Source: a virus
Lineage: Duplodnaviria > Caudoviricetes
DNA length: 53,984 bases
IMG/VR virus record: IMGVR_UViG_3300023184_002982
Location: 1-53,984 of that record
Reading direction: 5' to 3' (one strand)
Below the pieces are notes generated by a model. It saw only the letters and a list, made by a program, of their open reading frames with translations, did not search any database and was not told the origin of the DNA. Shown piece by piece: positions 24,098-38,334 of this stretch. The position numbers and the translations under genes were made by a program. The first letter of the stretch is position 1. Every line of letters starts with the position of its first letter.

Positions 24098-24100
24098 TGC

Positions 24101-24415
24101 ATGGCTATTCAAAAAACTTGTCCTAGATGTGGAGTAAAGCACCAGAAACGTGGACCATTTTGTTCACGTTCTTGTGGTAATGTACGCGAACACACCGAAG
24201 AAGATAAAGCAATACGCGCACAAAAACTAGCAGAGTATCATCAAACACCAGAGGGTGCAGCAACACGCGAAAAATCATCACGTATGATGACTGCTAAAAC
24301 GACAGGTAAAGAATGGGAAGAAATCGGTGTAGATGATTTTGCCGTAGGTATTCCAGATGTTACCGATTATTCTGCTGACTATGATTGGACATGGCAACGC
24401 GCAGAAAAATGGTGA
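24101..24415 (+). CDS. Zinc-finger hypothetical protein
   Basis: CPRC...FCSRSC. Confidence 0.6.
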   Translation: MAIQKTCPRCGVKHQKRGPFCSRSCGNVREHTEEDKAIRAQKLAEYHQTPEGAATREKSSRMMTAKTTGKEWEEIGVDDFAVGIPDVTDYSADYDWTWQRAEKW

Positions 24416-24444
24416 TTGACACCAATTCAAATCTATTGTAGTAT
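24416..24444 (+). promoter_or_regulatory. Sigma70-type promoter
   Basis: TTGACA-17bp-TAGTAT, ATG 6 nt after the -10. Confidence 0.6.
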
Positions 24445-24450
24445 ATTCAA

Positions 24451-25341
24451 ATGAAAAAAATACGAGAGAAGTTGAAAGATTGGCAATATGCCATCGAGAA
24501 CCTATACAATGCAATCCCATACACATTAATGGAAATGATTGTATTATTTGTGGTATTATGCTTTATTGTAGTTGGCGCAGCAGAAGCAAAACCACATAAA
24601 CATCGTGTTGCCAAAACTATAACAAACAATAATCTATCTTTTTTGGTAACTGATGTGACTACGAATTCTATTGTGCATGGACATAATATAGATCAGGTTC
24701 GAGCATTGGCTAGTATTACCAAATTAATGACTGCTATGGTAGCGTTGGATAGCAGCACTGATATGAATAAAATGCTAAGTTTGAGTAAATTAACTCACAG
24801 TAGGATGCCAGTTCGACAGTATTCTAGGGGTGAATTGTTTCACATGTTGCTAATCAAATCAGATAACGCAGCAGCCGAGACATTAGCAGCAGATTATGAA
24901 GGTGGACGTAGTAAATTCATTCAAGACATGAATACCCGTGCTGAACTAATGGGTATGTACGGCACACATTTTGATGATCCATCGGGTTTAAGTAATGGTA
25001 ATGTAAGCACAGCATCGGATGTTACCACAATGGTTGCCACAGCAGCACAATATTATCCAATAATAAGACAAATAAGCACTAAAAAAGAAGCAGATATTTT
25101 AACTTACACTAAAAATAAAACACGACATACTATCATTCATAACACTAATCATGTATTATTGGATAGTGTCGGTGGCATACAATTAAGCAAAACAGGGTTT
25201 ACTAATCCTGCGGGTTTTTGTGTGGCTATATTGATTGAACGTGAAATTAATTATGAAACACATCATCGAATTGTGGTTGTGATGGGTGCTAAAAATCCAA
25301 TTCAACGAGCAGATACAGTTAAACGTATCATTCATGCGTAA
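24451..25341 (+). CDS. D-Ala-D-Ala peptidase, S11 family (PBP7/PbpG-like)
   Basis: ASITK (SxxK), SDN (SxN), KTG; N-terminal TM segment. Confidence 0.9.
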   Translation: MKKIREKLKDWQYAIENLYNAIPYTLMEMIVLFVVLCFIVVGAAEAKPHKHRVAKTITNNNLSFLVTDVTTNSIVHGHNIDQVRALASITKLMTAMVALDSSTDMNKMLSLSKLTHSRMPVRQYSRGELFHMLLIKSDNAAAETLAADYEGGRSKFIQDMNTRAELMGMYGTHFDDPSGLSNGNVSTASDVTTMVATAAQYYPIIRQISTKKEADILTYTKNKTRHTIIHNTNHVLLDSVGGIQLSKTGFTNPAGFCVAILIEREINYETHHRIVVVMGAKNPIQRADTVKRIIHA

Positions 25342-25349
25342 GGTATATA

Positions 25350-25562
25350 ATGAATAAAGAATTTAAACACATTATGGAACGCATTCAAAATTTGAATGAA
25401 TATGAGGTGCAAGTCCCATTTCCAGATGGATTTGAGTTTGATGGCGTAGTTCCGTTTGATATGAGTATTTCGGGTGGCACTGCTTTTGTTAAAGTTGTTG
25501 CAGAATCATTAGAGGAAGCAAGGTTTAAAGCAAATGAATACTTCGAAGGCAAATACAAATAA
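25350..25562 (+). CDS. Hypothetical protein
   Basis: 70-aa ORF; V.AESLEEA motif. Confidence 0.6.
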   Translation: MNKEFKHIMERIQNLNEYEVQVPFPDGFEFDGVVPFDMSISGGTAFVKVVAESLEEARFKANEYFEGKYK

Positions 25563-25648
25563 ACCGTGGTTGTCGGATGAATACGACATGCCAATATTAG
25601 AAACAGAAGAAATGTGGTCGCAGACTGCAATTGACGAATACAAAGAGG

Positions 25649-26431
25649 ATGAAAATGTCAACAAAAAAGAAAAAGATTAATGAAGTAATTGATACTAGCG
25701 CAAATACAGTTGCTGCTAATACTAATAGTAAAATTACTTTTTATCCAGAGCCAGTAACAAATCAATTATTTCCTACGCCTGTACTTTTTGCTAAACTGCC
25801 TAGAAAATATACTGATGAAGAAGTTGCATTCATAAAAAAATGTGCTAATCAGGTGACCAAAAATACTGGTAACACTACAAGCGTTGATCGTTATGTTTTT
25901 GAAGAACCCGCATTAGCTGATTTAAAATCATATGTACAGTTTTATGTTAATTACTATATGAATGAAATCGAGTGTTCATATAATCCTGTTGAAGCATACA
26001 TCACACAATCGTGGTTAAATTTTACACAACCAGGTGAGTTTCACCATAAGCATGAACATCCGAATAGTTATATTTCTGGTGTGCTGTATATTAATGCTGA
26101 TCCAGAAAAAGATAAAATCTATTTCTATAAAAATGGATATAAGCGCATTTCATTACCAACTGATAGGTATAATCAATTCAATTCAGAATCATGGTGGTTC
26201 AATGTTGGTACATGCGATTTAGTTTTATTTCCTTCATATCTCACACATATGGTTGAACAAACAGAAAGCAAAGATACAAGAATTAGTTTATCATTCAATA
26301 CATTCTTAAAAGGTTATATTGGTGAGGAAGCAAGCTTGACAGCATTGCATACTGGTGATAAAGTTGATACAAAAGAATGGCGTAAAACTGAAGTTGACAA
26401 ACCCAAAGATGGTCGTGGCGGTTCAATTTAA
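25649..26431 (+). CDS. 2OG-Fe(II) oxygenase (TIGR02466-like)
   Basis: SWLN, H.HPNSYISGVLY, LVLFPSYLTHMV, RISLSFN; start uncertain. Confidence 0.85.
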   Translation: MKMSTKKKKINEVIDTSANTVAANTNSKITFYPEPVTNQLFPTPVLFAKLPRKYTDEEVAFIKKCANQVTKNTGNTTSVDRYVFEEPALADLKSYVQFYVNYYMNEIECSYNPVEAYITQSWLNFTQPGEFHHKHEHPNSYISGVLYINADPEKDKIYFYKNGYKRISLPTDRYNQFNSESWWFNVGTCDLVLFPSYLTHMVEQTESKDTRISLSFNTFLKGYIGEEASLTALHTGDKVDTKEWRKTEVDKPKDGRGGSI

Positions 26432-26450
26432 TTGATGGAATGAATATATT

Positions 26451-26834
26451 ATGACTACAGGCACAACATTTGAAGTCCCCCCAACTCCAACAGGAGTATA
26501 TACAATAGCTATAGGTGGTTCTGGTGGCAGCGGTGGTATATTGAGTGGTTCATTAATACCTTCTCCGGTTACTTATGTTGACCATACTATTGCAGGTGAA
26601 ACAGTATTGGCTGAATATATAACGACACCAAGTTATAAAACACTTAATCAAACTGATGAAGAAATAAAAGGTTTATTGATTGAAAAGCTAATACATGAAA
26701 TGTACAGAACTGGTAAAATAGAATTTACACAAATGACAAGACATGATACAGATGAAAAGATTTTTCGTGCTAGAATTCATGTTGTACCTGATACGCAGGT
26801 TAGACTTATCAGAGAACTAAAAAGTGCAAAATAA
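26451..26834 (+). CDS. Hypothetical protein
   Basis: 127-aa ORF; IEFTQ...FRARIHV. Confidence 0.55.
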   Translation: MTTGTTFEVPPTPTGVYTIAIGGSGGSGGILSGSLIPSPVTYVDHTIAGETVLAEYITTPSYKTLNQTDEEIKGLLIEKLIHEMYRTGKIEFTQMTRHDTDEKIFRARIHVVPDTQVRLIRELKSAK

Positions 26835-26889
26835 ACAACGAAAATCTCTATGGCGTAAAAGGCAGTTTCCTAATCGATAGGAGGCATTA

Positions 26890-27168
26890 ATGTTATCATA
26901 CGTGAAAGAATGGTTTAAAGTTAATGATTATCCAATTCATATTGTAGCAGGTAATTTTGACGAGTTTCAAAATTTTGTTATAAAGAAACGACAAATGGGT
27001 TTTCATTTTGAATACAGATATGTTCGTGATGTTGATTCTATTCGTGGTTTAGATAGAATTCGTGGTTTATATGTTGGTACATACAAAGATCGTCCAGACT
27101 TGCCAGAAATACAAGAATTCATTTATATAATAAAATCTAAACACAATTTCTACGAAAATAATGCTTGA
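26890..27168 (+). CDS. Hypothetical protein
   Basis: AGGAGG SD; stop TGA lies inside the first TTGACA of the array. Confidence 0.6.
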   Translation: MLSYVKEWFKVNDYPIHIVAGNFDEFQNFVIKKRQMGFHFEYRYVRDVDSIRGLDRIRGLYVGTYKDRPDLPEIQEFIYIIKSKHNFYENNA

Positions 27169-27222
27169 CACGATTACCGTTATTTGATACTATCTGTTTA
27201 TGGTAATCAATTCGGGGATGTT

Positions 27223-27399
27223 ATGACTATTGATCAAATAAATCTGTTCTTGACTAAGTTGGCTGATGATGCTATAACTGCTGTTGTTGATGCAGAGTAT
27301 GATGAAATGGTATTTGAAATGTTTGCAGGTCATGAACAATTGATGTATGCTTCACAATCTTACACTAATGATTCAATTGCCTACGGGAGCATGATATAA
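27223..27399 (+). CDS. Small acidic early protein
   Basis: First ATG after cassette 1 with GGGG SD. Confidence 0.6.
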   Translation: MTIDQINLFLTKLADDAITAVVDAEYDEMVFEMFAGHEQLMYASQSYTNDSIAYGSMI

Positions 27400-27716
27400 T
27401 GAGCAAAATATCTGATGAATTAGCAGTTGCATTGATTGGTTACAAAGATGCAATCATAACTTCGTATGTAAATGTTACAGAATCTACTTTTATCGATCAT
27501 GGCGTTGAATTTGCTATTGGTAAAAAATATGTCAAGGTAACATTTAAGCCTTGGAGCAGCACAAAATCTACTAAAAAATATACACATTCATTTATTGATA
27601 AAACTACTGGTGATATATGGAAAGCAGCAACATGGAAAGCACCAGCAAAAAACTTTCCAAGAGGTAATGTATTGAATAATCATTATCCTACGCTGCGTTG
27701 GACAGGAATTTCTTAA
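27399..27716 (+). CDS. Conserved T4-like early hypothetical protein
   Basis: KKYVKV...HSFIDKTTGDIWKAATWKAPAK...RGNV. Confidence 0.7.
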   Translation: MSKISDELAVALIGYKDAIITSYVNVTESTFIDHGVEFAIGKKYVKVTFKPWSSTKSTKKYTHSFIDKTTGDIWKAATWKAPAKNFPRGNVLNNHYPTLRWTGIS

Positions 27717-27919
27717 TGATTAAATTGTGTGTATATTGCGCTCACTTTGAATTAGAGGGCGCAATTTGTAACTCTGAATCATCGATCAAAAAAATTGATT
27801 TAATATTTGGCAATCATGAAAAAATGAGTGCTGATGAAATGCGTAAAGATAAAGATAAATGTGGATTAGCAGCAAAACTATTTAAACCTAAACAAGGTTT
27901 TTTGCAGGAGGAAGTATGA
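27716..27919 (+). CDS. Cys-rich small protein
   Basis: LCVYCAHF...C...R....CG..AKLF. Confidence 0.6.
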   Translation: MIKLCVYCAHFELEGAICNSESSIKKIDLIFGNHEKMSADEMRKDKDKCGLAAKLFKPKQGFLQEEV

Positions 27920-28083
27920 AGCAATTTTTTACAAGTAAAGAAGAATATATCGCGGTACTGCAAACAGAAATGGAAACGCTGCTGCGATATTATTATAAAC
28001 CCCAAGGAAGTGCAACAGGACATTATAATACTGCTGCATCTGTGCTGGCTGATCGTATTAAAGAATTGAAGGAACAAGTATGA
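27916..28083 (+). CDS. Small hypothetical protein (not in ORF track)
   Basis: AGGAGG SD; 55 aa, TGHYNTAASVL..RI.EL. Confidence 0.6.
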   Translation: MKQFFTSKEEYIAVLQTEMETLLRYYYKPQGSATGHYNTAASVLADRIKELKEQV

Positions 28084-28217
28084 AAATCGTTTTATTAATT
28101 ATGGTTGTATCATTAGCTGCGTGTAACACAACAGCAGGAATCTTGCAAGGTGCAGGTAAAGATTTACAAGCTGCGGGTGCATGGGTTACACCAAAAGAAC
28201 AGATACCATTAAAATGA
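28080..28217 (+). CDS. Entericidin EcnA/B-family lipoprotein (not in ORF track)
   Basis: MKIVLLIMVVSLAACNTTAGILQGAGKDLQAAG: lipobox LAAC then CNT...G.GKD. Confidence 0.7.
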   Translation: MKIVLLIMVVSLAACNTTAGILQGAGKDLQAAGAWVTPKEQIPLK

Positions 28218-28420
28218 TATTATATGATGATAAAATAGGTTTGATAATATCATTGTTTATCATTGGTAGTATAACAGCATTTGTGGTTGCAACAGAAAAA
28301 AATAAATGGGATGCATTTGAACAAGAATGTATATCTAAAAGCGGATATTATTTGCGTACACGCGATGCACAATTGTGCATTAAAAAAGATATGATTATTA
28401 AATTAAAAGGTGAATCATGA
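28214..28420 (+). CDS. Small membrane-anchored protein
   Basis: One TM helix, C..KSG...C. Confidence 0.55.
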   Translation: MILYDDKIGLIISLFIIGSITAFVVATEKNKWDAFEQECISKSGYYLRTRDAQLCIKKDMIIKLKGES

Positions 28421-28593
28421 ATTACGCATTGATGATCTATACCGTAGTTGCAATGTCAGGTTCAAATGCATCATTGGTACAGGCACACGATTGGCGTTAT
28501 CTTGCTACATTTTATTCGTCAGAACAATGTAAAGATGCAGCAAAGACAATGGGTATTTCATCTGAGCGTTACCGTTGTGTTCCAGCAAAATAA
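28417..28593 (+). CDS. Small exported protein (not in ORF track)
   Basis: 58 aa; F.S.EQC..AA...RCVPAK, like 20774..20947. Confidence 0.55.
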   Translation: MNYALMIYTVVAMSGSNASLVQAHDWRYLATFYSSEQCKDAAKTMGISSERYRCVPAK

Positions 28594-28654
28594 TACTTGA
28601 CAGGTTTACCGTTATTTGATACGATATGCTCTGGTTAATTAATTGGGGCATATT

Positions 28655-28852
28655 ATGAAATACATCTGGATTTTACAGTTTCGTCAAGTTAATTCTAAAT
28701 CTAGCACCAAAGTTTCTCCGTGGATAAATCTATCCGCACACACATCTAAAGAAAAATTGTTAGCATTTAAAAAAGAACAGTTGACTGAGGATTATATCGC
28801 ACAAATCAAAAACGAATATCATGTTCAACAGTTATCGATACTAGATGAATGA
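28655..28852 (+). CDS. Early hypothetical protein
   Basis: ATG after cassette leader and GGGG SD. Confidence 0.6.
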   Translation: MKYIWILQFRQVNSKSSTKVSPWINLSAHTSKEKLLAFKKEQLTEDYIAQIKNEYHVQQLSILDE

Positions 28853-29131
28853 TGTTTATTCTTTTTATAATTCTATTTCAAATAATACTAATCGTCACTT
28901 GCATTGGTATTGTTGCGCTATCTTATACATTACCAGAAATAATTGAATTACCAAAAATAATTGTTGACAACGAACCTATTATTGGTAATAATAGCGTTGT
29001 GGTTGTTAATAATACTGATGATGATTGGGAGTGATGATGGAAACGATAGAAATAGTTTTTGCAATAGTTGGAATCGTTGGCGGCATCTATATTGTCATGG
29101 ATGCATTACTTGATCGCATGGGGATTTAATT

Positions 29132-29350
29132 ATGAGCACATGGAATCTTGAAGGTATGACAGTTTTTGGTAATTATATGGGCGAGTTTCCTATTCGTGGT
29201 ACGGTGAGTTTATCGCGTGTTACCTATGGCGGTGGTGTTAGTCATCATGTCAAATTAGATACACCGATTAATGTGTATGGTGCTGAACGTGATGTGGTAA
29301 TTATGGAACACAAATATATTAATCGCGTGGCATCATCAAAAAGAGATTGA
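29132..29350 (+). CDS. Early hypothetical protein
   Basis: WNLEG..V.G.Y...SRV.YGG.V.H motif; GGGG SD. Confidence 0.65.
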   Translation: MSTWNLEGMTVFGNYMGEFPIRGTVSLSRVTYGGGVSHHVKLDTPINVYGAERDVVIMEHKYINRVASSKRD

Positions 29351-29409
29351 CACGTTTACCGTTTATTGGTACTATATGTTTGTTGATTGATTTTATTGGG
29401 AGATAAAAA

Positions 29410-29766
29410 ATGAAATTCACATATTACACAGATGCAGGTCATGGTTGGTTGAAAGTTCCAAAAGCATTACTCGAAAAATTGGGTATTGCAGGTAAGATAT
29501 CAAATTTTAGTTATCAGCGTGGTGATTATGCGTATCTGGAAGAAGATATCGATTATGCAATATTTGCAAATGCGTATGGTTTGAGTTATTTGCAGGTTGT
29601 TAATAAGCACACAAATCGTAATTCTAAAATACGCAGCTACCGTCATTATATGATAGAAGGTGCGACAAAAACTGTCAAAAATCTAATGACAGGTAAAGAT
29701 GTGGTTATACCTGCTGATACGCCGTGGTGCTGCAATCCTGCTAGTGAAACTTATTGGAGTATGTAA
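29410..29766 (+). CDS. Early hypothetical protein, two-module fusion
   Basis: D.GHGWL.V...YLEED.D module plus C-terminal VKNLMTG...TPWCCNPASETYWSM module. Confidence 0.7.
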   Translation: MKFTYYTDAGHGWLKVPKALLEKLGIAGKISNFSYQRGDYAYLEEDIDYAIFANAYGLSYLQVVNKHTNRNSKIRSYRHYMIEGATKTVKNLMTGKDVVIPADTPWCCNPASETYWSM

Positions 29767-29767
29767 A

Positions 29768-30007
29768 ATGAATTATACACTTGAAAACTTAGCAAGTATC
29801 GAAAAAACAACTAATCGTTTACTTGACATTGTTAATTTGGTATGGTCGGAAGATTCGATTGGATTATCAAATACACAACATCTATCAGTTATTATGAAAG
29901 AGCTACGTTCTGTGGCAATGATGGCAGAATACGATAAAGGTGCTGCTACCGATAGATTATTGGCATTAGTTGCTGATTTGGAAAACCAAGAAATTTTGGT
30001 AAAATAA
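29768..30007 (+). CDS. Early helical protein, paralog of 32136..32420
   Basis: L.SIE.TTN.L.D...ELR.VA..AE....AA..RLLA.VA shared. Confidence 0.65.
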   Translation: MNYTLENLASIEKTTNRLLDIVNLVWSEDSIGLSNTQHLSVIMKELRSVAMMAEYDKGAATDRLLALVADLENQEILVK

Positions 30008-30074
30008 TGCTTGACACGTTTACCGTTTATTGATACTATGTGTGTGTTGGTTGATTAATTCTAGGGAGAAAAAA

Positions 30075-30242
30075 ATGGATCAAGTCTCACAAATGATGGC
30101 ATACGAATCGGGTGAATTAGATGCAGATCAAACCATTGAATTGTTTCAAAGTCTAATTAATTCTGGCTTGGCATGGCAATTGCAAGGTTCCTATGGTCGC
30201 ATGGCATCTGAATTGATTCGTAGTGGTTATTGCGTAGCATAA
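30075..30242 (+). CDS. Conserved small phage early protein
   Basis: AYESGEL....IELFQ.LI.SG.AW.LQG.YGR.A..LI..G. Confidence 0.7.
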
Positions 30243-30256
30243 ACGGGAGAAAAAAA

Positions 30257-30460
30257 ATGAGTCGAATTTATAGTGAGTATGGGACAAGTGTCCGAATTGT
30301 AATTGAGGAACACAACTTAATTGTGCAAAAATTTGTAGAATACAATGATATTGGTTGGGTGCGGGTTGCTGCTTTTCATGAAATATCGGATGATTATGCA
30401 TTTAGCAATGCCCGTGAATGTGCCGAATCAACATTAGCAAAAATGAAGGAGTCTGCATAA
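30257..30460 (+). CDS. Early hypothetical protein
   Basis: GGGAG SD before ATG 30257. Confidence 0.6.
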   Translation: MSRIYSEYGTSVRIVIEEHNLIVQKFVEYNDIGWVRVAAFHEISDDYAFSNARECAESTLAKMKESA

Positions 30461-30663
30461 TGACTAAGAAAATTCGAATCATTGTTAATGGTGTTTCATT
30501 TTATACAACCAAAAAGCAGATTGCAGAGGGCGTGGGCGATTTTATTGAACTCAATAATTATTGCAGAAAAATCTATAAAGAGTGTATTGAGGGTAAATAT
30601 GCAGGTTTAGGGTACACTTGTTACACTAATGATACAAAATACGATTTACAAATTAATTTATAA
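30460..30663 (+). CDS. Early hypothetical protein
   Basis: AGGAG SD; coupled start. Confidence 0.6.
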   Translation: MTKKIRIIVNGVSFYTTKKQIAEGVGDFIELNNYCRKIYKECIEGKYAGLGYTCYTNDTKYDLQINL

Positions 30664-30729
30664 AACACTTGACACGTTTACCGTTTATTGATATAATCTT
30701 TTCATTGGTTAATTAATTAGGGGATTAAA

Positions 30730-30999
30730 ATGACAACACAAATGACTGATTGCGGTAGCATTCCAACAACTGAATTCATCAATGATTTTGTAGATTATAC
30801 ATTTAGTTTTTATGGTGCACTTGGCATCTATCCGCTAGGTTTTACCGTAGAACAAATCCAATTGGCAACACAATTGTACATCACTTGTCTAGATGTAAAC
30901 GATGAAGAATTTTGCGGTGATACTTTAGATCGTGAGCGTGTTCGTGATATCATACTAGCAACAGGTAAAATTTCTGGATTAGAAGCAGGAAATATTTAA
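30730..30999 (+). CDS. Early hypothetical protein
   Basis: F..Y..SFYG..GIY...F.GDTLDRERVRDI. Confidence 0.65.
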   Translation: MTTQMTDCGSIPTTEFINDFVDYTFSFYGALGIYPLGFTVEQIQLATQLYITCLDVNDEEFCGDTLDRERVRDIILATGKISGLEAGNI

Positions 31000-31068
31000 A
31001 TTAATGCTTGACACGTTTACCGTTTATTGATATACTCTGTTCATTGGTTAATTAATTGGGAGAAAAAA

Positions 31069-31425
31069 ATGTCAGCATTTATCGTAAGTAATGAGCACAT
31101 TGCATCATTGGTAAGCTTTGCAGTTGCTAATAATGCATTCACCGCCGATTTAGCACAAACCGCAGCGACTACGTTACTTGATGCAAATATTACAAGTGTC
31201 AATGTGCGCTATAACGAAAAAAATACGGCAACCATTGACTATGCGTCAACCCCTAAAAAATTGCTAACACCAGTTCAGGCAATCAAAGCAGCGAAATGCT
31301 TAGATTATCAGTCATGCGAGTTTGATGGTTATGAAAGCAGCACCGCCAAAAAAGTAATTAATCAAATTATCAATTCAGCATTGTATAAGCTTGATGGTTA
31401 CAATGAAGCTAAGTGGTCAATTTAA
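31069..31425 (+). CDS. Conserved early hypothetical protein
   Basis: MSAFIVS..HI..L, N..SVN.RY, CLDYQSCE. Confidence 0.7.
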   Translation: MSAFIVSNEHIASLVSFAVANNAFTADLAQTAATTLLDANITSVNVRYNEKNTATIDYASTPKKLLTPVQAIKAAKCLDYQSCEFDGYESSTAKKVINQIINSALYKLDGYNEAKWSI

Positions 31426-31437
31426 TAGGGGCATACA

Positions 31438-31611
31438 ATGAGCACAATTACTATTCAGATAACTACCGACAATGCAGCATTTGAGGATAACCCTACAGAA
31501 TTGTCGGATATACTAGAATCGATTGCTACACGTTACAGAGAAAGCGGCGATTTTTCGGATTATGTGTATGATTCAAATGGCAACAAAGTAGGTGAAATAA
31601 ACGTAAAATAA
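31438..31611 (+). CDS. Small early protein (not in ORF track)
   Basis: 57 aa; I.TDNAAFED...IL......D.NGNKVG; GGGG SD. Confidence 0.65.
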   Translation: MSTITIQITTDNAAFEDNPTELSDILESIATRYRESGDFSDYVYDSNGNKVGEINVK

Positions 31612-31675
31612 TGCTTGACAAGTTTACCGTTAATGGTTATAATCTGTTCATTGGTTAATTATTAGTGAGGTGATT

Positions 31676-31819
31676 ATGAGCACAGTTTACAAAATTGAGG
31701 AAGAATTTTCGTTGGGTGAGTTGTCATTTAGACAGATCGCCGAAAAGTATAATGTGAGCATTGCCGATGTTGAATTGATATTTGACGAGTTTATGAAAAA
31801 TATGGCAGAAGCTTATTAA
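31676..31819 (+). CDS. Small HTH-like protein (not in ORF track)
   Basis: 47 aa; LSFRQIAEKYNVSIADVELI; GAGGTG SD; own cassette. Confidence 0.6.
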   Translation: MSTVYKIEEEFSLGELSFRQIAEKYNVSIADVELIFDEFMKNMAEAY

Positions 31820-31887
31820 AAAACACTTGACACGTTTACCGTTTATTGTTATACTTTGTTCTGTTGATTGATTAATAGGGGCAAAAA

Positions 31888-32079
31888 ATGCAAATACTTC
31901 AAGGTTACTCGATTTGTGAATTAGATGATGGCGGATATATTATTCAAGCAAATGAATATGATGGTATTAATGATTTAACACCTAGTAAATTGCGTGATCG
32001 TTTTGGTGAAGTACGATTCGGTACATATTCACAGGCTGTTGTCGTATTGGCAACGCACTTATTAAAAGAAATTGCTTGA
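31888..32079 (+). CDS. Early hypothetical protein
   Basis: Own cassette and GGGG SD. Confidence 0.6.
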   Translation: MQILQGYSICELDDGGYIIQANEYDGINDLTPSKLRDRFGEVRFGTYSQAVVVLATHLLKEIA

Positions 32080-32135
32080 CACGTTTACCGTTATTTGATA
32101 CCATATCATTTCTGGTTAATTAATAGGGGATAAAA

Positions 32136-32420
32136 ATGTCTTTACTTTTCAATACCGATGAATTGCGCTCTATCGAGCAAACCACAAATAAACTAGTTGA
32201 CGTTGCTATGTCACTATCGGATAAAAATTCGCGTGATCGTATCAATGCAGTAACATTATCGACATTGGTATCTGAATTGCGTATGGTTGCATTTATTGCA
32301 GAGACTTCACCCGAAGCAGCAGCAACTAGACTTTTGGCAATGGTTGCGGGTTTGCGTAATAATGTCACAATTACAGATAATGAAGTGTTGGTAAATTCAG
32401 ACGGTGAAATTATCGCTTGA
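32136..32420 (+). CDS. Early helical protein, paralog of 29768..30007
   Basis: Shared motifs; own cassette. Confidence 0.65.
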   Translation: MSLLFNTDELRSIEQTTNKLVDVAMSLSDKNSRDRINAVTLSTLVSELRMVAFIAETSPEAAATRLLAMVAGLRNNVTITDNEVLVNSDGEIIA

Positions 32421-32477
32421 CATTGTTTACCGTTAATGATACCATACGTTTGTTGATTGATTAATAGGGGCGACAAA

Positions 32478-32717
32478 ATGGATATTGATGCGACAGGCGA
32501 TAAAACGGTGAACACAATAAAAACGGCAAAGCAGGGCAAAATTACTTATACCGTTGAAGCAGAGGAAAACGGTGCGGGTGATGTGTCCTATTATGTTGTC
32601 AAATGGGATAGTAATGGAATCGGCGAGTACGATTTTAGAAATTCATTTCGGGATAAAAACAAGGCAATTTATTTGCTTAATAAATTGGTAAGAAAAGAAA
32701 TATCGTGGGGCATCTAA
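32478..32717 (+). CDS. Early hypothetical protein
   Basis: ATG after cassette leader. Confidence 0.6.
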   Translation: MDIDATGDKTVNTIKTAKQGKITYTVEAEENGAGDVSYYVVKWDSNGIGEYDFRNSFRDKNKAIYLLNKLVRKEISWGI

Positions 32718-32785
32718 AAAACACTTGACACGTTTACCGTTTATTGATATAATCTGTTCATTGGTTAATTAATAGGGGCGCGAAA

Positions 32786-33136
32786 ATGAAAGTATTTGTT
32801 TATTACAATTTACATAAGAAAGTATTTTCAGTCAAAGCTCTGGAAGGTGCAGACAAAGGGCGAGTGATTGCACACTTGTCAGAATTGAATCTCGGTCAGG
32901 CTACGTTCAAAGTATCACAGGCAGGGCGTAAGCGTGTTCTATTGGAAAAGCGCAAAAACGTCCATGCGGGTGTAGTTGGTGAATGGTACGGTACAGTTCA
33001 GGCGATGGACAACGGCGTATCGGTGACATATAACCCTTATCTGTATGATTCATTCGTGACAGCAGACACAAAGCAGCCTATTTTCACCGCGAGGGAAGTA
33101 CACTTGAAAGATCGTAGAATTACTGCGATTATCTAA
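32786..33136 (+). CDS. Conserved phage early protein
   Basis: VYYNLHK..FSV, F.VS.AGR.RVL.EKRKNVHA.V.G, YNPY. Confidence 0.75.
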   Translation: MKVFVYYNLHKKVFSVKALEGADKGRVIAHLSELNLGQATFKVSQAGRKRVLLEKRKNVHAGVVGEWYGTVQAMDNGVSVTYNPYLYDSFVTADTKQPIFTAREVHLKDRRITAII

Positions 33137-33200
33137 AATAATGCTTGACATTGTTTACCGTTTATTGTAATATATCATTTTAATCATTAGGGGCGAGAAA

Positions 33201-33365
33201 ATGACCGAACAACAAATAGCAGCGATTAAATGTGCACTTGCTGATTTACAGGGTTCATTGCAAGCTTTTCAGCAGTCGGATATGTACGCACACGATTGGG
33301 AAGCGCATCAGCAGTCGATTGATGATTTATTAAATGAGTTTGATTTTTTAGCACAAATCGCTTGA
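33201..33365 (+). CDS. Small early protein (not in ORF track)
   Basis: 54 aa; AIKCALADLQG...HDWEAH; own cassette. Confidence 0.6.
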   Translation: MTEQQIAAIKCALADLQGSLQAFQQSDMYAHDWEAHQQSIDDLLNEFDFLAQIA

Positions 33366-33423
33366 CATTGTTTACCGTTTATAATATACTGTGTTCTGTT
33401 GATTGATTAATTAGGGGCGAAAA

Positions 33424-33822
33424 ATGGCATATATGAATCAAGAGAAAAAAGCGAAGATCGCGGCGGCAATCAAACCAATCTTAGCAAAATATAAACTCAA
33501 AGGCAGCTTGTCGGTTAATAATCATTCGTCAATTGTGTTGACAATCAAATCAGGCAGCATCGATTTTATCGGTAATTATAACTTGACAAATGCATCAAAA
33601 CCCCGTTTTGAAGGTGCAGAAAAATCGATACAGGTTAATCCATACTGGTATCAAGAGCACTTCGATGGCGTTGCTAAAGCAGCATTATCTGAGTTGGTTC
33701 CTGCGATGTACTCTGCCGATTATTATGACAATTCCGATATTCAAACCGATTATTTTGACACAGCGTATTATATAAGTGTTAACGTGGGACGTTGGAATAA
33801 ACCCTACGAATTAGTAAAATAA
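33424..33822 (+). CDS. LPD29-like (polyvalent-protein-associated) domain protein
   Basis: YDNSDIQTDYFDTAYY motif. Confidence 0.6.
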   Translation: MAYMNQEKKAKIAAAIKPILAKYKLKGSLSVNNHSSIVLTIKSGSIDFIGNYNLTNASKPRFEGAEKSIQVNPYWYQEHFDGVAKAALSELVPAMYSADYYDNSDIQTDYFDTAYYISVNVGRWNKPYELVK

Positions 33823-33886
33823 TTGCTTGACATTGTTTACCGTTTATTGTACACTATCATTTCTGGTTAATTAATAGGGGAAAAAA

Positions 33887-34228
33887 ATGCAAACAGTTAC
33901 ATTATCTGGTTTTCCTGAAATTGCTCGATTAATGCCAGTAGGTTACAAAAAACGCAAGGCATTCATTCAGAGCAGAGAAAAAATAACATTGTCAAATACC
34001 TATTGGGATGGCGGTAGTCGTTCTAGTTATACCATTGTTAATATTGTAACAGGTCAGATTACTACCTGCGCTCAATATTCACCACCAGAGTTCGGCGGTA
34101 TAACTCCAGTTGTCGAAATTGATAACGATATTGCTATTATTGAAACTGGTGTATTTTGCGGTAAACCTGCGACTGCTAGTGTGTTCGTTAGTCCAGAGAA
34201 TTACAATAAATTGTTGAAATTAGTTTAA
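33887..34228 (+). CDS. Conserved early hypothetical protein
   Basis: NTYWDGGSRS.Y, F.GK.A. Confidence 0.65.
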   Translation: MQTVTLSGFPEIARLMPVGYKKRKAFIQSREKITLSNTYWDGGSRSSYTIVNIVTGQITTCAQYSPPEFGGITPVVEIDNDIAIIETGVFCGKPATASVFVSPENYNKLLKLV

Positions 34229-34296
34229 ATAATAGTTGACAACGTTTACCGATTATGAGATAATTCATTTGTTGGTTAATCACATAGGGGCGATAA

Positions 34297-34527
34297 ATGA
34301 CTACAGTAGATCAAGTTAAAATGTTCGGTATGACAGAAGATGCAATACGCAATGAATACATGGATAGTATAACTGCGAAATTTTCAGGGCTTGAGATGGT
34401 CGTGGCAGGTATATTGTCGGATTGTCAAGAGCTAACAGCGATGGGTAGATCAGAGCAGGTAAGACAGCAATTGAACGTGGCAAAATTTATATTGTTTGAG
34501 ATGATTGACAAAAAAGAAACAGCATAA
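34297..34527 (+). CDS. Early hypothetical protein
   Basis: GILSDCQE...RQQLNVAKF. Confidence 0.65.
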   Translation: MTTVDQVKMFGMTEDAIRNEYMDSITAKFSGLEMVVAGILSDCQELTAMGRSEQVRQQLNVAKFILFEMIDKKETA

Positions 34528-34594
34528 AACAGTTGACAACGATTACCGATTAATATATACTTTGTGCATTGGTTGATTAATTAGGGGCGACAAA

Positions 34595-35170
34595 ATGACA
34601 ACAGCATTTTTCGGTAAAGTAATAGAAAACGAAGTTGCATACAATAATGCAATTAAGCGCAATATTATCGCAAATGCCAATAAAACATGGCGTTTAAATA
34701 CTGATCGTGCTGGTGAAATCGAGTTTGCATTGGGTGCTGGTCGCACCGAACATGGCTATACTGATAATTTCATAGGTGCAATGGCTGCTGCGTTTGATAC
34801 TTATGGCAAATTGTCAATTAAACAATCTGCTGCGATTTTAAAGGGTATCGATGCAATGGCTGCACGTAAAGCCGCATGGGTAGCTAAAAATGCCGCCAAT
34901 GATGCTACACGCGCTCATGTAGGCGTTGTGGGTGATAAATTGACAGTTACTCTCACAGTAAAGCACATTGTGTGTGTGGAAAGTCAATTCGGCACTAATT
35001 ACATTCACATTTGTGAAGATGCACAAGCGAATGTTATTATATACAAAGGCAAAGCATCAGGTTTTCCATTGAAGGGTGAAACCGCGACTATAGTTGCCAC
35101 AGTTAAAGAACATGCTTTGCGTGAAGGTGTTAAACAGACAATTATTCAACGACCAAAATTAGCTAACTAA
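34595..35170 (+). CDS. Early protein with C-terminal OB-fold-like domain
   Basis: HVGVVGDK...FG...D...NVIIYKG...ATVKEH...GVKQT.IQRP. Confidence 0.65.
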   Translation: MTTAFFGKVIENEVAYNNAIKRNIIANANKTWRLNTDRAGEIEFALGAGRTEHGYTDNFIGAMAAAFDTYGKLSIKQSAAILKGIDAMAARKAAWVAKNAANDATRAHVGVVGDKLTVTLTVKHIVCVESQFGTNYIHICEDAQANVIIYKGKASGFPLKGETATIVATVKEHALREGVKQTIIQRPKLAN

Positions 35171-35189
35171 TTAACAACTCTCCCCCCTT

Positions 35190-35216
35190 ACCTGCTGAAG
35201 TCTAGCAGGTTTTTTT
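35190..35216 (+). terminator. Rho-independent terminator closing the main cassette array
   Basis: ACCTGCT-GAAGTCT-AGCAGGT followed by a T run. Confidence 0.8.
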
Positions 35217-35235
35217 GTATCCATCGATAAAGTGT

Positions 35236-35256
35236 AAATGAGAATCATTCGCATTT
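35236..35256. promoter_or_regulatory. Fur-box-like palindrome
   Basis: AAATGAGAATCATTCGCATTT versus the 7-1-7 consensus TGATAATnATTATCA. Confidence 0.6.
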
Positions 35257-35378
35257 GTAATTGTATTTGCAAACAATAAATTAATTTGTATTGTCAGTCG
35301 TTTTATGACTGGTCAGTCACAATGTAAACGCACTAGTTGATTTGGTGTGTTTTTGTGGGACATTGTGGTACAGCTAAC

Positions 35379-35395
35379 TGCGAATTATTCTCATT
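35379..35395. promoter_or_regulatory. Second Fur-box-like palindrome, inverted relative to the first
   Basis: TGCGAATTATTCTCATT. Confidence 0.55.
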
Positions 35396-35487
35396 ACCAT
35401 TCAGAGTATCGCGCCATATAACACAGAATCACGCCAATGTCAAGCACCGAGTGTCATTGTTGTATTTCCGCAACACACAGATAATTC

Positions 35488-35516
35488 TTGACAATCCTGA
35501 AAAATTATGCTATACT
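35488..35516 (+). promoter_or_regulatory. Sigma70 promoter with no immediate ORF
   Basis: TTGACA-17bp-TATACT with extended -10 TGc. Confidence 0.65.
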
Positions 35517-35606
35517 GGAAGGTTAATCGTTACTATTAGTAAATTACTAATATAACGCGCAGGGTCACCGTCCACCCCCAGACACGCTGTTCGAACCATT
35601 GCAACC

Positions 35607-35635
35607 ATTATACCCGATAAGCGGTAAAAAATCAA
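35607..35635 (-). promoter_or_regulatory. Minus-strand cassette-type promoter
   Basis: TTGATT-TTTTACCGCTTATCGGG-TATAAT on the minus strand, with a TTTACCG core in a 17-bp spacer. Confidence 0.6.
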
Positions 35636-35722
35636 GTGGTTTATTTTTAAAAAAACAGTTGACACGTTTACCGATAATTGGTATTATACATTTACTGACT
35701 GATTAATAAGGGGATTGACAAA

Positions 35723-35899
35723 ATGACAAAATTAGCCGCCGCAGCAAAATTGTACGACACAAAATTTGCCGAATTGGAAAGTCTAGGTTTTTCTGAACAT
35801 GACGCATGGGTTGCAGCACTTGCAGCAGTTCGCGCAGTTTTTCCAAGTGTTACCGTTACACGCTCAGAGGGTTGGGTTTACGAATTGGCAACAGCTTAA
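35723..35899 (+). CDS. Small early protein (not in ORF track)
   Basis: 58 aa after the last cassette, GGGG SD. Confidence 0.6.
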   Translation: MTKLAAAAKLYDTKFAELESLGFSEHDAWVAALAAVRAVFPSVTVTRSEGWVYELATA

Positions 35900-35912
35900 T
35901 TAGGGGCAGACA

Positions 35913-36044
35913 ATGATTAAATTTATTGCAGGTGCGTTGTTTATGTTAGCTCTGGTTTACCCTGCTGTCACTAAGGACATTTTCGGGGATGCCGTGGACG
36001 CAGCAAATTCTGGTGTTAAAACAGCAATTAATTTAATTTCTTAA
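35913..36044 (+). CDS. Small membrane/exported protein (not in ORF track)
   Basis: MIKFIAGALFMLALVYPAV..., 43 aa, GGGG SD. Confidence 0.55.
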   Translation: MIKFIAGALFMLALVYPAVTKDIFGDAVDAANSGVKTAINLIS

Positions 36045-36058
36045 TCGGGGGGCTTGCC

Positions 36059-36205
36059 ATGTTTGAAACAGTTTACACATACGGAAAATTGGGCTACGTT
36101 GCCAAATTGGTAAGAAATGGGGTTTGCATCGGCACTTGGGTTTCTTACGATCTTAGCAACTTGCGCGATCAGGTAGAATCTTGGAAATTAACAAACTTGC
36201 ACTAA
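36059..36205 (+). CDS. Small early protein (not in ORF track)
   Basis: 48 aa, GGGGGG SD. Confidence 0.5.
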   Translation: MFETVYTYGKLGYVAKLVRNGVCIGTWVSYDLSNLRDQVESWKLTNLH

Positions 36206-36216
36206 GTTATCAGAAT

Positions 36217-36258
36217 GGCAGCGCAGCACAAAAACGCTGCGTTGTCAAGTTTTATTTT
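36217..36258 (+). terminator. Possible terminator hairpin
   Basis: GGCAGCGCAGC-ACAAAAAC-GCTGCGTTGTC (two G-U pairs) then AAGTTTTATTTT. Confidence 0.45.
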
Positions 36259-36407
36259 GAATGCGTTGCAAATACACAACACATGATACCAAAACGACAA
36301 TTGCTATTTTACTACTGTACTGAACGCTACAAGGAACATGCTATTTTGAAAGAGAACTCTTGTATGTGTATGAATTGGCATCCAAAATTTTTTTTTCCAG
36401 TAAAAAC

Positions 36408-36436
36408 TTGACACAGAAATTTTTTTGCGGTAAACT
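36408..36436 (+). promoter_or_regulatory. Sigma70 promoter overlapped by the inverted motif
   Basis: TTGACA-17bp-TAAACT; CGGTAAAC overlaps the -10. Confidence 0.6.
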
Positions 36437-36477
36437 TAGCTCAATTAGTAATTAACGGTAAACGATAGGAAAATACA

Positions 36478-36846
36478 ATGAAACTTAATAAAGATTTTGT
36501 TCCTACTTTCGACCCTAATTTTTTTATCAGATGTGAAGCACACAGAATAATGCGTATCGAAAGTTTTATAGTTTATATTCGCAAGCTTGGTCATTGGAAA
36601 ACCGAAGAGGATATCAGAGAACATCTGGAGTGGGTTTTAACTGAAGCATTGGGATCAACTAATCATTTTTTATCTGATGATGAACGCTCTGAGTTTTTTA
36701 AAGAGTTTGAGAGAATTTTCCGCGAAGATGTTCGCCAGCGTCAGGAACGGTTAGCTGATTACTTTAAATACGTGTGTTACAATGGATTACCTCCCCAACC
36801 ACTTAGACGTAAACGTAAGCACATAAACGTGGACTTGAGTAAATAG
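36478..36846 (+). CDS. Hypothetical protein
   Basis: 122 aa, bracketed by repeats. Confidence 0.65.
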   Translation: MKLNKDFVPTFDPNFFIRCEAHRIMRIESFIVYIRKLGHWKTEEDIREHLEWVLTEALGSTNHFLSDDERSEFFKEFERIFREDVRQRQERLADYFKYVCYNGLPPQPLRRKRKHINVDLSK

Positions 36847-36873
36847 TAATTAACGGTAAACGATAGGAGAATT

Positions 36874-37269
36874 ATGATGAATTGTGTAATTAGAGAATTT
36901 CTTGAAACCGCAGTAAAACAAACTAAACGCCTCCATAAGGCTAATCCTAAATTCGATCAAGATGACTTGAATGAATATTGTGCAGAACAATTTTCTGATA
37001 TGATTATAAAGAGATGTGTTGAACTTTCTAATAATGGTGACGTTATATCAGAGTATTTTGGTTTGAATTTGAATTTTAATGTTAGTAAACGAGATGCTCC
37101 TTTGGATAAATCTGAACAAGTCTCTAAACTAACACACGCATTATCGTTGATGAATGAAGTATTATATAATTGTGATAGTAAGTATGCAAATGATCTTGAG
37201 AACCTAACTGAAGATTTGGAACATATTTCTGATTCAATTGAATGTGACGTTTTGAAGAATATATTCTAA
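36874..37269 (+). CDS. Hypothetical protein (contains FAELIVxEC-like module)
   Basis: QFSDMIIKRCV...ISEYFGL; AGGAG SD. Confidence 0.65.
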   Translation: MMNCVIREFLETAVKQTKRLHKANPKFDQDDLNEYCAEQFSDMIIKRCVELSNNGDVISEYFGLNLNFNVSKRDAPLDKSEQVSKLTHALSLMNEVLYNCDSKYANDLENLTEDLEHISDSIECDVLKNIF

Positions 37270-37301
37270 ATGGAATTAACGGTAAACGATAGGAGATTAT
37301 A

Positions 37302-37601
37302 ATGGATATTGATAATGATGCACTTAATAAGTATTTGAAGCTAATCAGAAAACGGAATAGACATATAATGAAGTTGGATGCTATGCAATTGGAGTTGGAT
37401 AAGGCTAAAGATGAATTGAACAAAGAAACATACGATCAAATTTTTATACAAACACTGGCATATGATGATATATACTTCCCTACCAGAATTTCATTCACTA
37501 TACATCGAGAAGATGGTAAACCGTTTTTGTATTCTTCGACAACCGAACAAGATTTGTATGATCGATTAGAAGATGCTTTCGATGATATAAAAACATGTTA
37601 G
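37302..37601 (+). CDS. Hypothetical protein
   Basis: AGGAG SD directly after the repeat. Confidence 0.65.
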   Translation: MDIDNDALNKYLKLIRKRNRHIMKLDAMQLELDKAKDELNKETYDQIFIQTLAYDDIYFPTRISFTIHREDGKPFLYSSTTEQDLYDRLEDAFDDIKTC

Positions 37602-37633
37602 CCAGTTAAACTCTAATTAACGGTAAACGAACT

Positions 37634-38122
37634 ATGATAACGCAACAAAGACTCCATGAATTATTTGAGTATCGAGAAGATGGTAATCTGATATGGAAGA
37701 TAAAAATAGGTAAAAGAATTAAAGTAGGTGATATCGCTGGTGCCTACGATCAGGGATATACACGAATATCAATTAATTATACAAGATATCCTCTTCACAG
37801 ATTGATTTTTTTATATCATCATGGATATCTAACTGTTGGGTTACAGATAGACCATATTGATGGGAATTCAGAAAATAATCGGATAGAGAATCTTCGAGAG
37901 GTAACACAGAGACAAAATAATATGAATTCAAAACTCAAGGTTACTAATACATCAGGGGTTAAAGGTGTATACTGGAGTAAAGCTCAACGAAAATGGCATT
38001 CTCGAATAAAAGTAAACGGTAAGAATACACATCTAGGTTATTATGATACACTAGAAGAAGCTGAATCCGTAGTGAAAGATGCTAGAAAAAAATATCATGG
38101 TGAATACGCAAGACATAATTAA
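37634..38122 (+). CDS. HNH endonuclease with C-terminal AP2 domain
   Basis: HRLIF, IDHIDGNSENNRIENLR, NTSGVKGV.W, HLGYY...EEA. Confidence 0.9.
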   Translation: MITQQRLHELFEYREDGNLIWKIKIGKRIKVGDIAGAYDQGYTRISINYTRYPLHRLIFLYHHGYLTVGLQIDHIDGNSENNRIENLREVTQRQNNMNSKLKVTNTSGVKGVYWSKAQRKWHSRIKVNGKNTHLGYYDTLEEAESVVKDARKKYHGEYARHN

Positions 38123-38133
38123 CGGTAAACGAT

Positions 38134-38334
38134 ATGCCATTCAGACTGACTGAAGAGATGTGTTTAATTACGGTTCCTGATGCTAATCGGGAAGATGGGT
38201 ATCGCCACGTGGATTTGGGTAATTACTACATGGACGATAATAATAGAAAGTGTCTGGTCACAACCGCCGAACTCGCAGACAAATATTACAGGTATGTGCG
38301 GGTTCCTATGTACATAAGGAAGAAAATCCAATGA
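38134..38334 (+). CDS. Hypothetical protein
   Basis: ATG immediately after the repeat. Confidence 0.5.
   Translation: MPFRLTEEMCLITVPDANREDGYRHVDLGNYYMDDNNRKCLVTTAELADKYYRYVRVPMYIRKKIQ

Follow-up and report, generated by a model that had tools for sequence, protein, structure and literature searches.

The window studied here is the whole of IMG/VR record IMGVR_UViG_3300023184_002982 (53,984 bases), which reads as part of an uncultivated freshwater T4-like myovirus. Between positions 27165 and 35725 it carries an array of 17 short promoter cassettes, each followed by small open reading frames (ORFs). The array is probably an early hyperplastic region made up of shufflable cassettes that resemble the promoter early stem-loop (PeSL) elements of T4-type phages, without the stem-loop and with a selected box in the promoter spacer.

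Organization of the promoter array

The 17 units described in an initial annotation of this DNA are all present, and all lie on the + strand. Each consists of an A-rich stretch, TTGACA, a 17-bp spacer that mostly ends in TGn, a -10 element, a leader, a Shine-Dalgarno (SD) sequence and ATG. The TTGACA hexamer, the spacer length and the A2 and T6 positions of the -10 element are common to 17 of 17 cassettes, as are the A residues at -5 and -9 of the upstream stretch, which has the consensus AAAAtAAtGC. The ATG lies 27-35 nt past the -10 element and is preceded by AGGGG, GGGAG or GAGG as the SD, and the A-rich stretch of most units directly adjoins the stop codon of the ORF before it. The pattern TTGACA-N17-TAnnnT has 23 matches in the window against 1.32 expected (shuffle maximum 4; 23 is reached in 0 of 100). 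They include sixteen of the cassettes; the seventeenth, at 34236, appears in the promoter scan with a GATAAT -10 element and a 17-bp spacer. G[T/A]TTACCG occurs 17 times on the + strand, each time within a cassette spacer, and the 13-mer GTTTACCGTTWAT, with up to two mismatches allowed, has 29 matches where 3.74 are expected (0 of 100 shuffles).

Downstream of the promoters are about 32 small ORFs, the majority without an assigned family. Members of DUF7717, DUF7417, L5 gp82, and PHROGs 10415 and 27218, all phage families of unknown function, account for a few. The early observation that no terminator precedes 35190 is borne out by a simple scan of the + strand, which leaves Rho-dependent sites aside: nothing is found between a site at 26865, upstream of cassette 1, and the terminator-like hairpin with a T run at 35190..35217, the first after the array. 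The leader string quoted in the initial annotation, in contrast, matches exactly at 30669 alone. The leader is GGTTAATTAAT in six of the 17 cassettes, and the remainder are TTGATTGATTAAT-like variants. These A/T-rich leaders are unstructured and, if anything, less structured than shuffled sequences, with a fold z-score above 0 in 14 of 17; whole intercistronic RNAs have a mean fold z-score of 0.10. A role of the cassettes in RNA structure is ruled out by these scores.

Conservation of the spacer

Related sequences for comparison were located in two ways. Genomes and contigs with a related region were found via the neighbouring 2OG-oxygenase gene, and close strains were found with the 17-mer TTGACACGTTTACCGTT. 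In IMG/VR this 17-mer returned 14 stretches, among which contig G001 (4 matches) is the sole relative; in metagenomes it returned 93 stretches, and the 79 loci examined include five of this lineage (L182, L223, L228, L233 and L241). L179 and L184, which have single matches outside any cassette context, were dropped together with the remaining metagenome loci.

The TACC(G) sequence at spacer positions 5-9 (about -25 to -21) shows the pattern of an old and selected sequence, and is taken to function as a promoter sub-element. It appears to mark a subclass of early promoters across the phage clade, and it is extended to GTTTACCGTTwAT in the lineage of the window. Across the 17 cassettes, TTACCG has 0 variable cells of 102, as does the -35 hexamer (0/102), against 35/187 in the other spacer positions and 22/102 in the -10 element. 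In nine groups of orthologous promoters that draw on six other contigs, 6 of 90 columns of GTTTACCGTT are changed against 20 of 63 in the rest of the spacer (p = 6e-5), and the -35 element is again unchanged (0/54), so that the core has about five times fewer changes between orthologues than the spacer around it. In relatives, TACC is found in 29 spacers among 140 unique consensus promoters from eleven stretches, and in 22 of them it starts exactly at position 5. TACC is at this position in seven of 51 promoters when the genomes are drawn irrespective of the motif (p = 4e-9), and in eight of 85 promoters in motif-chosen genomes once the selecting matches are removed (p = 7e-9). The IMG/VR scans for the sister-lineage box (37 stretches forward and 18 inverted) force the box by design and were used just to choose genomes. 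The box is also carried by G014, a complete 170-kb genome with 41% primase identity, and the promoter of the g33424 orthologue has it in the window, in G010 and in the distant G014, while the spacer is otherwise different. Without selection, such a preference for one position across independently picked genomes would be difficult to account for. In the article texts of the PeSL and T4 literature consulted (PMC2839356, PMC4122927, PMC2988021, PMC1524935), supplements aside, no such spacer box is described. Searches of papers for the motif strings return unrelated primer-type matches alone, and none for the 14-mer TTGACACGTTTACC.

A second layer of conservation is more recent. Among the 17 cassettes the mean pairwise identity is 0.62 in the upstream 10 nt, 0.60 in the spacer, 0.70 in the -10 element and 0.52 in the leader, and 0.30 in the flank further upstream. 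The spacer is therefore strongly conserved, as first noted, but not uniquely so, since the upstream 10 nt and the leader are raised too. Exact runs of at least 20 nt, with a maximum of 38 nt, are common to 27 of the 136 cassette pairs, and neighbouring cassettes are more alike than random pairs (the observed value is reached in 45 of 5000 permutations). In the 146-kb relative G005, the 15 promoters of the syntenic 40 kb have just the two hexamers in common (identity 0.31 in both spacer and leader), and G006 is intermediate. Much of the conservation is thus due to recent amplification and homogenization of one cassette family in this lineage.

TACCG occupies spacer positions 5-9 in 11 units (register A) and 6-10 in six (the shifted register, termed B in cassettes 10 and 12-14), and the one-base shift reported at 32417, 33145, 33362, 33827, 34236 and 34533 is real, with a spacer of 17 bp throughout. 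All four combinations of register A or B with leader type L2 or L3 occur (31827, 32076, 33362 and 33827), which points to crossovers between spacer and leader. The shifted units fall into two subfamilies of neighbours, in which the core is preceded by TTG (four units) or AC (two), so one or two indels with a compensating loss before the -10 element would suffice to produce them. The shift alone does not show an independent site.

Recent copying raises the question of whether the box owes its conservation to descent alone, its copies being kept alike by gene conversion with no function beyond recombination homology. Identity that is raised about equally in upstream stretch, spacer and leader, the spatial clustering of subfamilies, the free spacers of G005 and the conversion-like replacement of orthologous promoters (P31615 in L228 and P35659 in L223) are all consistent with this. 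It is nevertheless a quite improbable explanation of the core, which is invariant next to variable flanks in the same 17 bp, differs between orthologues a fifth as often as the surrounding spacer, and recurs as TACC at an unchanged position in distant relatives where the remaining spacer is random.

The idea that the core behaves as an independent binding site stands in part. Its invariance, its slow change and the copies outside promoters described below are in its favour, but the register shift is explicable by indels, and in relatives the position and orientation are fixed. Because they are fixed, an element that is read in the geometry of the polymerase-promoter complex fits at least as well as a free-standing operator. 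TTTACCGTTAA matches its own reverse complement at eight of 11 positions, and is equally readable as a direct repeat, CGTTTAC/CGTTTAT.

A strict position (22 of 29 TACC at position 5) and, in relatives, a strict orientation would also be expected if the polymerase itself were the reader, that is, if the host RNA polymerase contacted TACCG at -25 to -21, or if the bending or twist of the spacer were tuned, to give a stronger promoter with no further factor. T4 early promoters are likewise reported to carry consensus beyond the canonical elements (PMC2988021). This explanation is rather unlikely, in that the +1 register is tolerated in six of the 17 window cassettes, the 14-mer is inverted in one variant promoter, 13-mer copies occur outside promoters, and the box is missing from the majority of the clade's consensus promoters.

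Gain, loss and shuffling of cassettes

When cassette order is compared with that of relatives, as the initial annotation suggested, both order and content are found to differ. G001 (91% amino-acid identity at the oxygenase and about 91% nucleotide identity) is collinear over window positions 22238-31025. In G005-G009 (67-79% amino-acid identity), arrays of consensus promoters stand at the equivalent place with different genes. Homologues of g34297 and g30075 lie there between the oxygenase and the homologue of g26890; g27916 and g28080 have exchanged places; and the g30460 homologue is directly followed by that of g33424, whereas in the window these two genes are separated by 2.76 kb that hold nine cassettes (30669-33362). 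No homologue of the ORFs of this block is found in the relatives examined. The g28417 homologue sits elsewhere in G005, and further rearrangement is seen in G010-G013.

Differences of the same kind are found between strains. Contigs of run X4 lack P34533 with g34595, lack g35723, and lack the HNH endonuclease gene of the downstream module along with the repeat copy on either side of it; at these deletion joints the shorter side measures 184-255 nt. In L223, a different 59-residue ORF takes the place of P34533 and g34595, an additional promoter-plus-ORF unit precedes cassette 17, and other ORFs lie between the downstream repeat copies. In L228, g30257 is missing. Cassette 17 is replaced in run X4 by a promoter with an inverted core, and in L223 it is preceded by such a promoter. 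Together with the gene order of the relatives, these contigs bear out the proposal that the repeats accompany gain, loss and shuffling of gene cassettes.

The exact runs of up to 38 nt common to cassettes provide portable homology for a phage recombination system, and exchange in the array looks homology-driven. Two joints connect equal offsets in two cassettes (31054 to 31661 and 33405 to 33870, with 30-47 nt on one side) and hint at homologous deletions. Other short-sided joints (33395 to 34273, 36346 to 38442, 26359 to 34471 and 38491 to 28417) are likewise treated as hints, as are the parts of the window without contig cover in runs X3-X5. The array shares with integrons the arrangement of small exchangeable ORFs with a conserved junction sequence. 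It differs from them in that the junction is a promoter, not attC, and that no recombinase family is found in the window, which represents 31% of the genome.

The cargo of the cassettes appears promiscuous, since homologues of the 191-residue ORF headed by cassette 16 occur in many unrelated phages. These homologues (54 loci) were considered as possible relatives and rejected: they belong to unrelated phages, mostly of higher GC, and a core-bearing promoter is found at 0 of 54. Within the array, g29768 and g32136 are paralogues (E = 4e-13), and no relatives of g31069 are found in IMG/VR.

Short-read contigs of public runs often start or end exactly at cassettes (30670-31009, 31819-32416 and 32726-33023, in region 30669-33900). 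Assemblies of this phage will tend to break or be mis-joined inside the array.

Comparison with known systems

PeSLs are defined by an A/T-rich upstream stretch, a sigma-70-type promoter, SD and ATG, and a stem-loop terminator just upstream, and they cluster in hyperplastic regions at the boundaries of indels (PMC4122927, PMC2839356). Recombination between PeSLs also releases mini-circles, for which the assembled contigs of the present lineage offer hints in the two equal-offset joints. The window cassettes resemble the PeSLs described for RB49/phi1, T4/PST and KVP40/nt-1 in having an A-rich stretch, -35/N17/-10 elements and a 3′ SD with ATG (PMC2839356, PMC4122927), and share with those of RB49/phi1 the near-perfect TTGACA/TATAAT hexamers. 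As in the PeSL accounts, they lie in a hyperplastic region of small ORFans, at boundaries of insertion, deletion and replacement between relatives. The upstream stem-loop is absent: the 60 nt 5′ of each -35 element fold as shuffled sequences do (z from -2.01 to +1.65), and no G+C hairpin with a T run is found there. Unlike PeSLs, the array cassettes are therefore not transcriptionally insulated. The spacers also carry the selected box, and the word 'spacer' occurs 0 times in the article text of PMC2839356. The parallel with PeSLs drawn in the initial annotation thus stands for behaviour, as portable modules of promoter and translation start, but not for membership, because the cassettes have no stem-loop and are not composite promoter-terminators.

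T4 early promoters, as described in PMC2988021 and PMC1524935, are also very strong host-type promoters with an A-rich upstream stretch, TGn and extra conserved positions, and many lie 5′ of novel ORFs. Their -35 element is GTTTAC, whereas the window has TTGACA, with GTTTAC 8 nt downstream inside the spacer. GTTTAC was considered as a second -35 element and is ruled out, as no usable -10 element lies at 16-18 bp. The MotA box is similar in concept only, in that it too tags a class of promoters by a sequence particular to the phage, placed between -35 and -10. It is centred near -30, where it replaces the -35 element, and lies 11-13 bp from the -10, whereas the window cassettes keep a perfect -35. 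The suggested MotA parallel fails, since a wwwTGCTTtA-type pattern has 0 matches in the window at N12 spacing; TGCTTGA 5′ of eight cassettes overlaps the -35 element and lies 19 bp from the -10.

The host-takeover module of SPO1 has dense strong early promoters and small host-takeover ORFs, and the phage protein TF1 binds at early promoters. SPO1 belongs to an unrelated phage and host group, and no homologue of the HU-like TF1 is seen in the window.

In Aca-type repression of strong early anti-CRISPR promoters, a site is embedded in the core promoter and a small helix-turn-helix (HTH) ORF is among the regulated genes (PMC9410906); the window has a putative site in this placement and a predicted HTH ORF within the array. 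The differences are that no Aca family match is found in the window, that the site here is a partial palindrome (8/11), and that the box is clade-wide whereas the HTH ORF is lineage-specific. Early anti-defence genes of archaeal viruses offer another likeness, in that a shared regulatory sequence tags many unrelated small early ORFs (PMC11065993).

Inverted copies and the low-GC module

The 13-mer GTTTACCGTTAAT also occurs five times in inverted orientation, inside AATTAACGGTAAACGA, immediately 5′ of five consecutive genes (36450-38132). The copy at 36450..36465 is directly 5′ of the SD and ATG of g36478. Those at 36848..36863 and 37274..37289 precede g36874 and g37302, that at 37615..37630 precedes the HNH-AP2 endonuclease gene, and that at 38117..38132 overlaps the HNH stop codon and precedes g38134; all five are listed on the + strand. 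In L223 the inverted element flanks different ORFs. An IMG/VR search with AATTAACGGTAAACGA returns 37 stretches with one match each, which is the level expected by chance, and no other contig has more than one copy.

Inversion is also found within a promoter. The variant TTGACA-TTAACGGTAAACAATGA-GATACT carries the exact in-place reverse complement of the 14-mer of cassette 10, with CGGTA at positions 5-9. It is seen in a contig of run X4 and, with a different leader and gene, in L223; the pattern has 11 matches in IMG/VR, with the -10 element in place in none. The in-place inversion and the inverted copies favour a double-strand element that tolerates inversion. Early RNA that reads through the array might also pair in antisense with the five inverted copies.

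These copies invite the suggestion that a site-specific enzyme, either a nuclease such as the HNH-AP2 endonuclease or a recombinase, acts at the 13-mer and moves cassettes in the manner of integrons. The HNH gene lies between two copies, and gene and copies are missing together in a variant; the element marks the junctions of variable ORFs in the low-GC module of both the window and L223; and the 14-nt inversion is exact and in place. The suggestion is very hard to reconcile with the breakpoints, which lie outside the core: the deletion of P34533 and g34595 starts 6 nt 5′ of the -35 element, and the weak cassette-to-cassette joints are at leader offsets 43-46. Pfam finds no integrase or recombinase in the window, and the cassettes have their own promoters, unlike integron cassettes. 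A recombination target is accordingly most improbable.

The module that holds the five inverted copies, and with them the HNH-AP2 endonuclease, spans 36408-38334. It has a GC content of about 0.34, its own promoter, and a gene content that differs in L223, and looks like a recently acquired block. Its promoter (36408..36436, + strand), a consensus promoter without a forward box and with a TAAACT -10 element, is conserved in L223. The gene for the endonuclease, with HNH_3 and AP2 domains (37634-38122), is present in some strains and absent in others; in the run X4 contig, 11 nt containing GGAG replace it and both flanking 16-mers. The module is apparently skipped, across a short-sided joint, in a contig of run X5. 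SD usage differs as well, with AGGGG(C) or GGGAG in array genes (27165-35725) and TAGGAG in the module (36450-37310). T4 has an SD-cutting nuclease, RegB.

A possible function of the box

In the proposed mechanism, host sigma-70 polymerase would fire all units immediately after infection, each launching one to seven small ORFs, and transcripts could run on to the terminator at 35190. Gain, loss and transfer of ORFs, as comparison shows, proceed one cassette at a time in the manner of PeSLs, although no terminator is built in. The best guess for the box is that it is recognized by a protein which acts on the complex of polymerase and promoter and would place the box-bearing promoters under common control, apart from box-less consensus promoters such as those at 24416, 35488 and 36408; shut-off or timing would be the most likely effect. 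The initial annotation proposed that a single phage factor would switch the whole array and that the array would act as an RNA polymerase sink. It is possible, though tentative, that TACC(G) is the recognition element of a clade-conserved phage protein which acts on polymerase-bound sigma-70 promoters and switches a class of early genes together.

The candidates for such a reader within the window are few. The ORF headed by cassette 7, g31676 (31676..31819, + strand; 47 residues), is predicted to fold as a three-helix HTH (predicted local distance difference test score, pLDDT, 89.6), and is a weak, lineage-specific candidate DNA binder. Its best PDB matches, to the DNA-binding domains of DeoR, TrpR and NarL, are weak (E = 0.4-1), Pfam Trp_repressor is below cut-off (E = 0.022), and a 94%-identical homologue is labelled 'Trp operon repressor' in its source annotation. 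The family is confined to the lineage (eight clusters, 83-96% identity), and no homologue is found in G005 or in G010-G014. At most, g31676 may read the extended 13-mer. A MazE/AbrB-like ORF at 45717-45908 is below the Pfam cut-off, and Pfam reports no MotA or AsiA family in the window.

Several points weigh against a selected box that is read by a clade-wide factor in an early, shuffling array. The core was defined on the same sequences as its invariance count, and because cells and promoters share ancestry and the core was chosen after looking, the p-values overstate independence. About 85% of the consensus promoters of relatives are without the box, which is thus not needed for a consensus promoter, and one natural orthologue, in L228, has TTACCT for the core TTACCG. 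Orientation is mixed: relatives are strictly forward, with CGGTA in three of 140 spacers, about background, while the lineage of the window has inverted copies. The two cassette-to-cassette joints rest on 30-47 nt and may be effects of assembly or alignment. Promoter activity, transcript starts and read-through are deduced from the DNA sequence. No regulator of the box is identified in the window, with 31% of the genome, and g31676 cannot be the clade-wide reader, since it is lineage-specific and the box is clade-wide.

If a protein does read the box, an ORF captured by cassette recombination would, in this lineage, automatically acquire the regulatory address of the box, and the array would serve as a platform for acquiring genes, which would find promoter, translation start and timing already in place. 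The box would then give a sequence-defined handle on the shut-off of early promoters and bear on early-gene timing in T4-like phages without MotA. Early shut-off in T4 is reported to persist, unexplained, in asiA and modA mutants (PMC2988021). The box is in any case a concrete promoter element, which is testable with a 29-bp synthetic promoter. PeSL-type shuffling of ORFans was previously described solely for cultured T4-type phages of enterobacteria and vibrios; the same cassette behaviour is now found in an abundant uncultured lake phage lineage, in which the stem-loop is dispensable. As for archaeal viruses (PMC11065993), a shared tag could be used in metagenomic phage contigs to recognize early ORFs for host takeover or anti-defence.

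Individual cassettes

Cassette 1 (27165..27225) is composed of TTGACA, the spacer CGATTACCGTTATTTGA, a TACTAT -10 element, the leader and ATG; it heads about seven small ORFs (27223-28593) and has an orthologous promoter in G001. Cassettes 2 (28597..28657), 3 (29347..29412) and 4 (30011..30077) are in register A. In cassette 2, TTACCGTT is kept by four strain orthologues, while positions 1-3, the -10 element and the leader differ, and cassette 4 heads g30075, g30257 and g30460.

Cassette 5 (30669..30732; register A), with a TATAAT -10 element, is the first of the block 30669-33362 and has a 38-nt exact run in common with cassette 11 (32725..32788; register A), which heads the ORF of the L5 gp82 family. 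Cassette 6 (31008..31071), also in register A, is the one whose L228 orthologue has the TTACCT core. Cassette 7 (31615..31678), which heads g31676, is in register A with a spacer that contains GTTTACCGTTAAT. Register A is combined with leader type L2 in cassette 8 (31827..31890) and with L3 in cassette 9 (32076..32138), which heads g32136. Register B is found in cassette 12 (33145..33203), with leader type L2 in cassettes 10 (32417..32480) and 13 (33362..33426), the latter heading g33424, and with L3 in cassette 14 (33827..33889).

Cassettes 15 (34236..34299) and 16 (34533..34597) are in the shifted register. The former has the GATAAT -10 element, and its L223 orthologue keeps GTTTACCG while the spacer flank and the -10 element differ; the latter has the core GATTACCG and heads the 191-residue ORF. 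Cassette 17 (35659..35725; register A) stands apart, past the terminator and a 450-bp non-coding stretch.

This non-coding gap contains a box-less consensus promoter at 35488-35516, followed by about 130 nt with no ORF. Within 35488-35655, this stretch folds into a 5′ hairpin and a 3′ hairpin with a U run (z = -2.4), finds no match in Rfam and shows 88% conservation in L223. It is a small RNA candidate whose 3′ part, at 35617-35629, contains the spacer core in inverted, partial form. Also past the terminator and non-coding is a 20-nt inverted repeat (35237-35256/35376-35395), whose arms are 90% complementary and 119 nt apart. Rfam gives no match at gathering score in the window, and none at E ≤ 1 for 35100-36500.

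The phage and the rest of the window

The CheckV completeness of the window is 31%, which implies a phage genome of roughly 170 kb. The best cultured match of the encoded gp61-type primase is that of Methylophilales phage Melnitz (43.5% identity), followed by pelagiphages and cyanomyophages. T4 RNase H, endonuclease VII, a SegE-like GIY-YIG endonuclease, NrdA and NrdB, a thymidylate-synthase-like enzyme, a prohead protease and sugar-nucleotide enzymes are also encoded, and the T4 late-promoter octamer TATAAATA lies 5′ of the genes at 11264 and 53319. Megablast of 27000-36000 against cultured phages gives no match, and a distant blastn search against them gives a single 200-bp match, to a gene of a Limnohabitans phage. 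No tRNA genes are found in the window. Parts of the region are present in DNA runs of 10 studies labelled lake, freshwater or plankton.

Other parts of the window also vary. A 1.2-kb segment at 15215-16389, between the primase and the thymidylate-synthase-like gene, contains a second HNH endonuclease gene (15678-16295); G001 lacks it and has 108 bp there instead. The gap between nrdA and nrdB is about 0.8 kb in G001 and 0.25 kb in the window.

Genes for sugar and nucleotide-sugar enzymes are located at 30-2579, 23477-24097 and 49774-52487, and include a 3-dehydroquinate-synthase-like enzyme, a short-chain dehydrogenase, a SIS domain, a cytidylyltransferase, a family-2 glycosyltransferase, a dTDP-sugar epimerase and an NAD epimerase. 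With the 2OG-Fe(II) oxygenase (25631-26431), they could play a role in modification of DNA or surface. Of two large ORFs at 2677-4338 and 7140-9128, one has a Zeta-toxin-like kinase/AAA domain and one an internal HicA-like domain, according to Pfam annotation.

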